Shown: one piece after another, positions 23,701 through 26,700 of the stretch | Layout: the number at the start of each line of letters is the position of its first letter | How positions within the stretch are numbered: position 1 is the stretch's first letter | Virus genome (UHGV): UHGV-1470964 | Strand: one strand, 5' to 3' | Length of the DNA stretch: 39,922 bases | Source: a virus | Made by a program: the position numbers

Positions 23701-26700
23701 CCGTTGCTACAAAGAAATCGTATTCCCGACACCTCATCCCTATCTCGCCTGAATTGCAGGTAACCCATGGAAAAAACAATCTATTTCCTGAAAGAACAGG
23801 CCAGCGAAGCTACGCGCATCACTGCTAAATACAATGGCGTAGAGGCTATTTATCAATCTGTTGGTGATAGAGCAAAGCGCTGCCAACTTATAGGTCGTGG
23901 TAATGCGCGTCAGATAAAGCATCTGCTGCGTGAGTTTATTAAATCCACTAAGGCGGCGGATGGATGAAATATTTCTTCTACACCCGGCTGGGGGAAACCC
24001 GCTATCAGCTGGCTGACGGCTCGTTGCTGTGCAAAGACGTGCCGATAGGACGAACAGGTAAGCAGCTCTATGGTGCTGATGACCTGCCAAAACTGAAACC
24101 CGATAAGTTCGGTGAAATAGTCGTCACGCGTTCTCCTGAGCAGGTATTCCATCCGGCCACGCTCGCCTCATTCGAAGGGATGAGCATCACGATCCTGCAT
24201 CCTGAAGATGAAAACGGGAATGTGCGGCTGGTAAATCCCGAGAACTGGAAAGAGTTTGCTGTCGGGCACCTCCAGAACGTTCGGCGCGGGACTGGTGATC
24301 AGTCTGATTTGATGCTGGCAGACCTTATCGTCAAAGACGAAAGCGCCATTCAGCTTATCGAAGATGGTCTGCGCGAAGTGTCGTGCGGCTATGACGCGGA
24401 GTACGAGCAGACCGAGCCAGGTAAAGCCGAGCAGGTCGATATTACCGGAAACCATGTGGCTCTTGTCCCTAAAGGCAGAGCCGGAAATCGTTGTGCAATT
24501 GGAGACAGAGACACAATGGCAAATCAAAAGAAAAGCTGGTGGACCCGCATGCGCACGGCCATCAAAACGGGTGACGCTGACACCATGAACGAACTGCTGG
24601 ACTCTGCGCCAGCGGCGGTAACGGGTGACGAAGGGGATCTGCCGAGCGGCGTTAACCTCAACATTAACCTTTCACCGCAGCAACCATTGCCGGACAAAAA
24701 GCCGGAAATGGGCGGAGAGCCAACCGGCGACGGCGAGGACGATATCAAAACCTTGCTCAAAGCCCTGCTGGCTAAGCTCGAAGGAACTGCGACGGGCGAT
24801 AACGACAATAAGCCTGACGATAATCCGACCGGTGACGGCGAGGACGATGAAGAAGAAACCACGATTACTGGTGACGCTGCTTATCGTGCCGAAGTTATCG
24901 TCCCGGGTATCGATCTGAGCCGTAAGGTGAAACCGACCGCGTTCAAACGTGATGTGCTGGCTGCCGCTGACAAAACACTGGTTCGCCAGGTTGTCGGTGA
25001 TGCGGATATCCGCAAATTGCCCAAGCAATCGGTAGATATGGCGTTTAACGCCGTGTCAGAGATTGCCAAAGGGCGAAACACCCGCAGCACCACGGGCGAT
25101 GCACAACGTCCAAATATGGGCATGACCAGCATCGCTTCCCTGAACAAACAAAACGCCGACTTCTGGTCTAACCGCAAAGGATAATCCAATGACTGCATAT
25201 CTGTACCGGATGCCTGTTGGCATTGCCGGGGCTATCTCTCGCCCGCAGGACTTAACCGTCGAACCGGTGATCCTTAAATCCGCTAACGCCTTCGCTGCCT
25301 ATGGTCTGGCTGGCAAATATGACGCTGACGGCTTTTTCGTGCCGCTGGCGGACGGTGACACCGCCGACAAGGTGAAGGGGATCTACGTTCGTCCGTATCC
25401 GACCACATCGCAGCCAGACATGGTTCGCCAGGTGGGGACGGATAAGAACTTCCCGGGTGACGCCATGAAGCGTGGCTACATGACCGTTAATCTCGGCTCT
25501 GATTTTGATGCCAGCACCATCAAAAAAGGCGACCCGGTATACGTTGTCGTCTCCACTGATGAATCCATCAAAGTGCCGCTGGGCGGCTTCATGTCCACGT
25601 CCGTCAGTGGCAAAAACGTGGCGCTGACCAACGCCGAATTCACAGGGGCCGGTGACGCTAACGGCAATGCAGAAATCTCCTGGAAGATTTAAGGAACAGA
25701 CGAATGATTACTTTTGATCAGGCAACCGTTGATAGCTCTGGTGCCTTTCTCATCGGGGAGCTGGAGCGACTCGACCAGACGCTGAACCTGCCGCTGGTGG
25801 GTTACACCTGGACCCGCGATATTCAGCTGCGTGAAGACGTTTCTATCGCAGATGACATTTCCAGCTGGACTAACACCAGTTTTGGCGCTGCTGGTACTGG
25901 CGCAAATCCGAACGGTAAAAACTGGGTAGGCAAAGACTCCACTGCTATTGCTGGCGTGAATGTTGATATCGGCAAAGACGGCAATCCGCTGAACCTCTGG
26001 GGCATGGAACTGGGCTGGACCGTTGTAGAGCTGGCAGCAGCTCAGCAGGTAGGTCGCCCGATTGATACCCAGAAGTACGACGGGATGCAGCTCAAATGGC
26101 AGATGGACAACGACGAGCAGGTTTACATTGGCGATGATGCGCTCGGCCTGAAAGGGCTGGCAAACCTTGTCGGTGTGACGCTGAACAATGCGCCGAAGAC
26201 CTGGACGAACTCCACCAACGACGAGATTCTCGATAGCGTGAACAGCATTCTGTCGAATGCCTGGGCAGCATCCGGTTATTCCGTCGTGCCTTCTGATCTG
26301 CGCATTCCGCCAGAGCAGTATTCACTGCTGGCGAGCCGTAAGGTTTCCGAAGCGGGTAACCAGTCACTGCTGACCTATCTGGCCGTGAACACTATCGCTT
26401 TCCACCAGAACGGCGTTCCGCTGGAAATCAAAGCGGTTAAATGGCTGAAAGGGCGCGGGGTTGGCGGTAAAGACCGTATGGTCGCCTACACCAACGACAA
26501 GAAATATGTGCGCTATCCGCTGGTGCCGTTGCAGAGCGTTCCTATCCAGTATCGCGGTCTGTACCAGATTGCGACCTACTACGGCAAGCTCGGTGCGGTT
26601 GAGCCAGTGTACAAAGAAACCCTGTCCTACGTGGACGGTATCTGATAACCAGAACGGCCCCGAAAGGGGCCAGAAGGAAACTGAAAATGGCGAAAGAAAA

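Follow-up and report, generated by a model that had tools for sequence, protein, structure and literature searches.

A conserved hairpin without a U-tract behind the major capsid gene of a SEN34-like temperate myovirus is a candidate protector of capsid mRNA

How can a phage make far more capsid protein than neighbouring gene products when all its late genes lie in one antiterminated operon, yet each virion requires hundreds of copies of the capsid protein and only a few of the products of the next genes? We address this question in the virus genome UHGV-1470964, whose full length of 39,922 nucleotides (nt) is called the window below, and focus on a small hairpin, GGCCCC-GAAA-GGGGCC, located at 26656-26671 on the + strand, in the 41-nt gap (26646-26686) that follows the major capsid gene. 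A preliminary description of the locus had presented it as a perfect hairpin with a GNRA-like tetraloop and no T-run, directly after the capsid gene, and had proposed that it stabilises or attenuates the transcript. The analysis reported here shows that the hairpin is real, conserved and selected, and that it belongs to an ordinary, well-known kind of element, which leaves current understanding unchanged. From the comparison of related sequences, its role is most likely to protect the capsid mRNA from degradation.

The junction between the two genes reads ...GGT ATC TGA TAA CCAGAAC GGCCCC GAAA GGGGCC AG AAGGA AACTGAAA ATG... on the + strand. The capsid open reading frame (ORF) ends with TGA (26643-26645), the first of two tandem in-frame stops (26643-26648), the second being TAA (26646-26648). 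A single-stranded spacer of 10 nt (26646-26655), which measures 3-13 nt and mostly 7-10 nt in relatives, leads from the stop to the 5' arm GGCCCC (26656-26661), the GAAA loop (26662-26665) and the 3' arm GGGGCC (26666-26671). The two arms, defined by sequence and by folding, form six G-C pairs with a stability of -13.3 kcal/mol, and the perfect hairpin is thus confirmed, 10 nt past the stop; the range 26646-26686 first given for it is that of the whole intergenic gap. The loop is a true GNRA loop, closed by a C-G pair. Two nt past the stem, a Shine-Dalgarno (SD)-like AAGGA (26674-26678) precedes by 8 nt the ATG (26687) of the next gene. The upstream gene (25704-26645, + strand, 313 amino acids) is indeed that of the major capsid protein, with matches to Pfam PF09950 (Major_capside, 2e-81) and PHROG 264 (major head protein, 2.8e-94). 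The downstream gene (26687-27076, + strand) encodes a coiled-coil protein of 129 amino acids of unknown function (PHROG 2619, unknown function, 6.5e-48), named 'STY1053 family phage-associated protein' in RefSeq relatives.

Among the perfect-stem hairpins of the 39.9 kb the post-capsid one ranks second in stability; dinucleotide-preserving shuffles yield 0.94 +/- 0.88 hairpins of -13 kcal/mol or below per window, that is about 0.001 per 41 nt, and the 71-nt region around the hairpin folds with a z-score of -2.6. The post-capsid hairpin is not a chance structure. It is also the only strong intergenic hairpin from the terminase genes to the tail genes of the window, and it lies in the largest gap of the head module, the gene gaps of the head and tail block being 0-14 nt.

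Two kinds of known element come to mind for a structure of this type. The G+C-rich stem-loop of an intrinsic terminator is present, and the U-tract (about five or more U in the 8 nt directly 3' of the stem) is absent: the tail reads AGAAGGAAACTGAAA, with no T in its first 8 nt and one T in 15 nt, and a terminator scan of the + strand did not report the post-capsid hairpin. The description of the hairpin as lacking a T-run thus stands. Of the hallmarks of an intercistronic 3' protective stem-loop, the structural ones are found: a stable stem-loop directly behind the favoured cistron, in a co-directional operon and without a U-tract. An Rfam scan of 26300-27000 at E <= 10 returned only sub-threshold noise (CRISPR-DR17, histone 3' stem-loop), the best matches reaching 18.3 bits against a gathering score of 42, and no family was assigned to the hairpin. 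A search for repeats of the 16-mer allowing up to three mismatches found a single copy in the window, and the hairpin is therefore not a repeat of the repetitive extragenic palindromic (REP) type. A stimulator of stop-codon readthrough or frameshifting was rejected in view of the tandem TGA TAA and of the lack of a slippery heptamer upstream; the second in-frame stop speaks against programmed readthrough stimulated by the hairpin, and relatives use TAA or TGA stops at variable distances from theirs.

To what extent is the hairpin conserved? Viral contigs and a set of genomes with one representative per species provided 358 loci that encode relatives of the capsid protein, with identities between 100% and about 52%. 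In 356 of them the sequence reaches far enough past the stop, and these reduce to 148 distinct post-stop sequences. Of the 148, 133 have a hairpin that starts 3-13 nt past the capsid stop and reaches -10 kcal/mol or below, with 33 distinct stems and 56 distinct hairpins. A scan of +/-3 kb in 38 diverse genomic loci found a hairpin of that stability within the first 50 nt past the capsid stop in 33 of them, as compared to a background of 0.054 such hairpins per 50 nt. Named phages with the hairpin are SEN34 (TGGCCCC-GAAA-GGGGCCA), Hafnia yong1, Klebsiella Mulock and Ralstonia PY059YO380; Pbunavirus capsid genes did not turn up among the tblastn relatives.

Between these relatives the stem sequence is replaced while the pairing is kept: GGCCCC/GGGGCC gives way to AGCCCC/GGGGCT, GGCCTC/GAGGCC, GGCGGCCC/GGGCCGCT, GGCGGG/CCCGCC, AGGCGAGG/CCTCGCCT and others. 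Pairs were counted on sequences anchored at the loop because MAFFT, applied to the loop-anchored 22-mers, broke the register of the GGCGGG-type stems. In the inner six pairs of 83 tetraloop hairpins anchored in this way, 497 of 498 cells are paired, as compared to a mean of 311 and a maximum of 339 in shuffles, and sliding the register by +/-1 lowers pairing to 57-71%. CG to GC exchanges, in either direction, or replacements by A-T are seen at each of the six stem positions, so that all six pairs of the window stem have compensatory changes in relatives. This alignment is fitted to the hairpin, with a circularity that is limited since 133 of the 148 sequences qualify. An unfitted MAFFT alignment contains double changes in 10 cells as against 3.9 +/- 1.6 in shuffles, and both this count and the covariation score exceed those of all 500 shuffles. 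In the MAFFT alignment of 51 junctions, pairing reaches only 78%, a +1 slide scores equally well, and RNAalifold did not recover the hairpin, proposing three trivial pairs; this poor result arises because loop length varies (4, 5 or 6 nt) and MAFFT then aligns the 3' arms out of register with one another.

Pairing that survives changes of sequence could be maintained in DNA or in RNA. Except for its loop, the 16-mer is a perfect DNA palindrome, of the kind that a dimeric protein, a restriction enzyme or another DNA-level function could use. Several asymmetries between the strands point to RNA. Of the distinct tetraloops, 30 of 50 are GNRA, for about 1.6 expected, and three are UNCG; read on the - strand, only three GNRA loops would be found instead of 30. 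G.U pairs occur in 14 distinct stems, and when the folds of both strands are compared, that of the + strand is the more stable 60 times and that of the - strand 14 times. A T-run comes after the stem in 49 of the 133 sequences, an A-run before it in three. The stem turnover described above, the G.U pairs and GNRA loops specific to the + strand, the single occurrence of the 16-mer in the window and the lack of a promoter-like site nearby leave a DNA site extremely improbable, and we rejected it on the grounds of strand asymmetry and stem turnover. A terminator on the - strand was rejected as well: the scan flags that strand, with a poor tail TTCTGGTTAT, but the surrounding genes are all on the + strand and the upstream A-runs are rare in relatives.

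The comparison thus indicates selection of the hairpin as an RNA structure of the + strand, linked to the 3' end of the capsid gene. In four loci where a different, DUF4054-like gene follows directly (L109, L110, L119, L120), it has remained with the capsid gene, and it is kept in three others that also have a different downstream gene (L091, L094, L132). In the first 70 nt past the stop of these three, the 5' flank and the 5' arm are of the window type (TGATAACCGGAACGGCCCCG), and the remainder is replaced by another 3' arm (CCCCGCC-TGACT-GGCGGGG), a T-rich stretch and the different downstream gene. Judging from these sequences, the junction is a mosaic recombination joint inside the hairpin.

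What does the RNA structure do? A first clue comes from the tail that follows it. Counts of T in the 8 nt past the stem have a bimodal distribution, with 0-2 in 68 sequences and 5-7 in 49; the forms with a T-run are canonical intrinsic terminators, fitted tightly in between the capsid stop and the SD that follows. T-runs are limited to relatives with a capsid less than 80% identical; all sequences at or above 80%, the window included, are T-less. The T-less state is not confined to this clade: other clades have it on unrelated stems, such as CCCGCC with CCTCATGGAG or AACTCATGGAG behind it. Therefore the U-tract came and went while the stem-loop stayed, and since the hairpin is kept without a T-run in several clades, the stem-loop itself is the selected part.

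The presence of canonical terminators at the same site, in the 49 of 133 distinct hairpin-bearing sequences that have 5-7 T, raises the possibility that the window hairpin is a partial terminator, at which a fraction of the polymerases would stop so that fewer downstream transcripts are made. GC-rich stems with GNRA or UNCG loops are typical of terminator hairpins. Furthermore, phage T7 has its single terminator, T-phi, directly after the capsid gene (PMC6938266). Against this, true attenuation is unlikely in the window phage because the U-tract is missing, the stem lies 10 nt past the stop and a Q antiterminator is encoded upstream. When an E. coli (Escherichia coli) terminator was moved to 5 bp past a stop codon, its efficiency fell from about 90% to less than 10%, the 5' arm being covered by the ribosome, and a free stretch of 10-15 nt of RNA is required between ribosome and terminator hairpin (PMC4824070); the 10-nt spacer of the window is at the lower limit thus defined for a hairpin to fold free of the ribosome. 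The capsid gene must be heavily translated. The Q-type antiterminator gene (14998-15621, + strand; Pfam Antiterm PF03589, 1.3e-57; PHROG 127, 6.6e-83) heads the late operon. In lambdoid phages Q renders RNA polymerase resistant to terminators, and as Q is encoded, the late operon should therefore read through them. Moreover, the whole clade with at least 80% capsid identity is T-less, yet it kept the stem. We thus consider partial termination improbable: of the two effects first proposed, stabilisation fits a conserved + strand structure at the 3' end of the capsid gene, and attenuation does not fit well with a stem close to the stop, without a U-tract and under Q.

If termination is lost, the hairpin might be a mere relic, either a decayed terminator devoid of function or a short conserved linker used as a joint for modular phage recombination. 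The mosaic joint within the hairpin of L091, L094 and L132 would suit a linker, and so would prophage L118, in which homology to the window starts again at 18858, with a second T-less hairpin (18865-18886) 7 nt further on. A relic would be expected to decay, yet the T-less hairpins remain perfectly paired through compensatory changes in several clades, their loops remain GNRA, and in at least 42 near-identical copies the stem is damaged in just one (L064). This explanation appears to us highly doubtful, more so than partial termination.

We propose, with moderate confidence, that the element is a T-less descendant of a post-capsid terminator, which now acts post-transcriptionally on the RNA as a 3' protector. 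The late operon, of about 24 kb, would be transcribed as one unit by a Q-modified, terminator-resistant RNA polymerase, with little or no termination at the hairpin. RNase E would then cleave the less densely translated downstream RNA, and the 3'-5' exonucleases RNase II and PNPase would degrade it back to the G-C/GNRA hairpin and stall there. The mRNA segment that ends with the protease/scaffold, cement and capsid genes would in this way outlive the neck and tail segment, and capsid mRNA would be raised relative to the downstream genes. We infer these steps, from polymerase read-through and downstream cleavage to exonuclease stalling and the effect on mRNA abundance, from the sequence and its relatives.

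Precedents for such a device are well established. In malE-malF and many other E. coli operons, conserved stem-loops block PNPase and RNase II after endonucleolytic cleavage; in such operons ribosome density is higher on the upstream gene that is favoured, and the structures are conserved from one genus to another (PMC5927463). Shielding of the upstream segment from PNPase and RNase II is the best-documented role of such stem-loops in enterobacteria. Like these intercistronic structures ('model A' of differential operon decay, Dar and Sorek 2018, PMC5927463), the window hairpin is a stable, evolutionarily conserved stem-loop that lacks a U-tract and, within a polycistronic unit, stands immediately 3' of the cistron whose expression must be higher; the proposed action is also the same, namely to halt PNPase and RNase II once an endonuclease has cut the RNA downstream. 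It is not one of the REP elements or bacterial interspersed mosaic elements (BIME), being unique in the window and without an Rfam match. Compared with the known intercistronic structures it is shorter (6 bp), and it is intergenic, whereas most structures of Dar and Sorek lie inside the downstream ORF (PMC5927463).

Other known systems resemble it in part. The intrinsic terminators of relatives (Trabulsiella, Morganella and Pantoea types, AGCCCC-TCCG-GGGGCT-TTTTTT) stand at the same post-capsid site with a similar G-C stem and 4-nt loop and likewise form a compact junction with the SD that follows, but have 5-7 T in the 8 nt past the stem as against 0-2 in the clade of the window, whose element is therefore without the transcript-releasing feature. 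The single-stranded DNA phages phiX174 and f1/M13 have weak terminator or stabiliser hairpins after coat-protein genes, which give rise to nested, differentially abundant mRNAs; they use different promoters and no Q antitermination, and their hairpins have no sequence relationship to that of the window. T-phi of T7 is likewise a hairpin directly after the most highly expressed structural gene (capsid gene 10) and ahead of genes whose products are needed in lower amounts (PMC6938266), but it has a U-run and acts on T7 RNA polymerase, in contrast to the Q-modified host polymerase and the absence of a U-run here. The gal operon's terminator hairpin is likewise a 3' stem-loop that acts as an exonuclease roadblock and is needed for the accumulation of the mRNAs ending there; unlike the window hairpin, it sits at the operon end and also terminates transcription (PMC7681074). 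Our literature search found no description of the post-capsid hairpin or of transcript maps of SEN34-like phages, and the papers on Pseudomonas phages studied by Oxford Nanopore Technologies (ONT)-cappable-seq held nothing transferable to it.

A number of points weigh against protection of the capsid mRNA. Differences in late-gene expression in phage lambda are ascribed mainly to translation initiation and not to mRNA level. The stem has only six G-C pairs, near the lower limit for blocking PNPase, when many relatives have stems of 7-9 pairs; stem-loops of five G/C pairs are not effective barriers to PNPase in vitro, according to the account of Spickler and Mackie (2000) given in PMC2811032. 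The hairpin is absent from Acinetobacter MD-2021a and Burkholderia BgManors32, and eight Xenorhabdus-type loci (L104, L105, L117, L133, L134, L136, L181, L184) have no strong hairpin within 1.5 kb; it is therefore dispensable in some backgrounds. In the Xenorhabdus-type prophages there is no intergenic gap at all, and stop and start overlap as TAAATG or TAATGATG, so the element is dispensable when the two genes are translationally coupled. Finally, the distance from the hairpin to the SD that follows is always 1-6 nt, which suits a role in downstream translation equally well.

This last observation leads to the most serious of the rival explanations, in which the hairpin is a translational insulator that keeps ribosomes which have just terminated from sliding on to the low-copy downstream gene or starting there anew, or a 5' protective or standby structure of the papBA type, a 5' hairpin model that is documented (PMC5927463). 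The stem ends 2 nt ahead of AAGGA, and in the 68 T-less relatives the SD core lies 1-6 nt and the start codon 14-15 nt past the stem. Moreover, in two contigs (L165, L170) a gene with HNH and AP2 domains has been inserted between the capsid stop and the hairpin, and the hairpin stayed by the downstream SD. Tight spacing is however expected anyway of a maximally compacted phage junction, and T-run forms are about 4 nt longer, with the SD 6-7 nt and the start codon 18-19 nt past the stem. In the seven loci listed above the hairpin is kept in front of a different downstream gene, and the same site in relatives holds a bona fide terminator, a 3'-end element of the upstream gene. The Xenorhabdus-type relatives couple both genes directly, through TAAATG, and insulation is therefore not a general requirement. 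We regard insulation as unlikely, although less so than partial termination.

Protection of the 3' end thus remains our preferred reading, and it has some practical sides. A conserved hairpin at the capsid boundary is a simple, testable device for setting the ratio of capsid to downstream products after transcription, and the T-run and T-less clades, with their 33 stems, form a natural experiment that separates termination from RNA protection. Annotation pipelines that demand a T-run will overlook such hairpins, and phage engineers who add genes behind the capsid gene had best keep this one.

The genome that contains the hairpin is that of a temperate myovirus with lambdoid regulation, which includes a CI-like repressor gene (7848-8480, - strand), replication genes, RusA and Q. 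For the region, identity to Citrobacter phage Omnitron is 99% and that to Salmonella phage SEN34 (Brunovirus) 92%, and relatives of it were found in 215 of 5426 complete E. coli genomes. Downstream of the Q gene are a PR'-like promoter (TTGACT-17 nt-TAAATT, about 15664-15692) and a tR'-like terminator (AGCCCTGAG...CTCGGGGCT followed by TTTTTT, about 15728-15758). A lambda-like late control region (14998-15760) is thus found here in a myovirus with SEN34-type structural genes. Past it, a single co-directional block runs through the lysis, terminase, portal, minor head protein, DUF2213 protease/scaffold, cement and capsid genes, and continues after the capsid gene with neck, sheath, tube and baseplate genes.

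The second T-less hairpin of the window, built on the same plan as the one behind the capsid gene, lies at the boundary of the lysis and packaging modules (18865-18886; context 18856-18913). There an ORF (18599-18856) ends and is followed by 8 nt, the hairpin GAAGCCC-TTCATTGA-GGGCTTC, 6 nt, GGAG and an ATG at 18911. The stem has seven perfect pairs in our census, or nine pairs including one G.U around a 4-nt loop in the minimum free energy (MFE) fold, and the 71-nt fold reaches -21.2 kcal/mol with a z-score of -4.1. The hairpin is conserved in the E. coli ET896 prophage, whose homology to the window resumes at 18858, 7 nt before the stem. Tentatively, and with slightly less conviction than we grant to insulation, one may imagine that such U-tract-independent hairpins serve as 'punctuation' that splits the Q-antiterminated transcript of about 24 kb into segments (lysis, packaging and head, neck and tail) of differing stability or translation; the strong GNRA preference might then reflect recognition by a factor. 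If this were true, the switching between T-run and T-less forms in relatives would mean that terminators and stabilisers interconvert freely.

An endonuclease-like gene with HNH_3 and AP2 domains (16025-16645) stands at the start of the late operon, preceded by a hairpin with a T-run (16013-16036). The gene inserted in the viral contigs L165 (2497-3264) and L170 encodes 255 amino acids with the same domains (HNH_3, 2e-13; AP2, 1e-8) and lies between the capsid stop and GGCCCC-GCAA-GGGGCC. It has the appearance of a mobile homing-endonuclease gene for which these junctions serve as sites.

The minor head protein and DUF2213 protease/scaffold genes are 211 nt apart, a gap filled by a 66-amino-acid ORF without a Pfam match (23767-23967), whose stop overlaps the next ATG (ATGA); the ET896 prophage, otherwise 95-97% identical, has only 14 nt in place of this gap. 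Among the tail and baseplate genes is inserted a P22 immI-like module (35497-37136), with an Arc-like repressor gene (35504-35848, - strand; PF03869, 1.8e-20), a P22 antirepressor-like gene (36053-37099; PF10547/PF10548) and hairpins with T-runs at 35497-35512 and 37117-37136. A third hairpin of this module, the strongest of the window (36113-36144, -21.8 kcal/mol), is terminator-like on the - strand. Another one, CGGGAGC-ATTC-GCTCCCG (30631-30648, -12.8 kcal/mol), lies within the tail assembly chaperone gene (30518-970), which in relatives is followed by a short ORF, in the frameshift arrangement typical of such chaperones.

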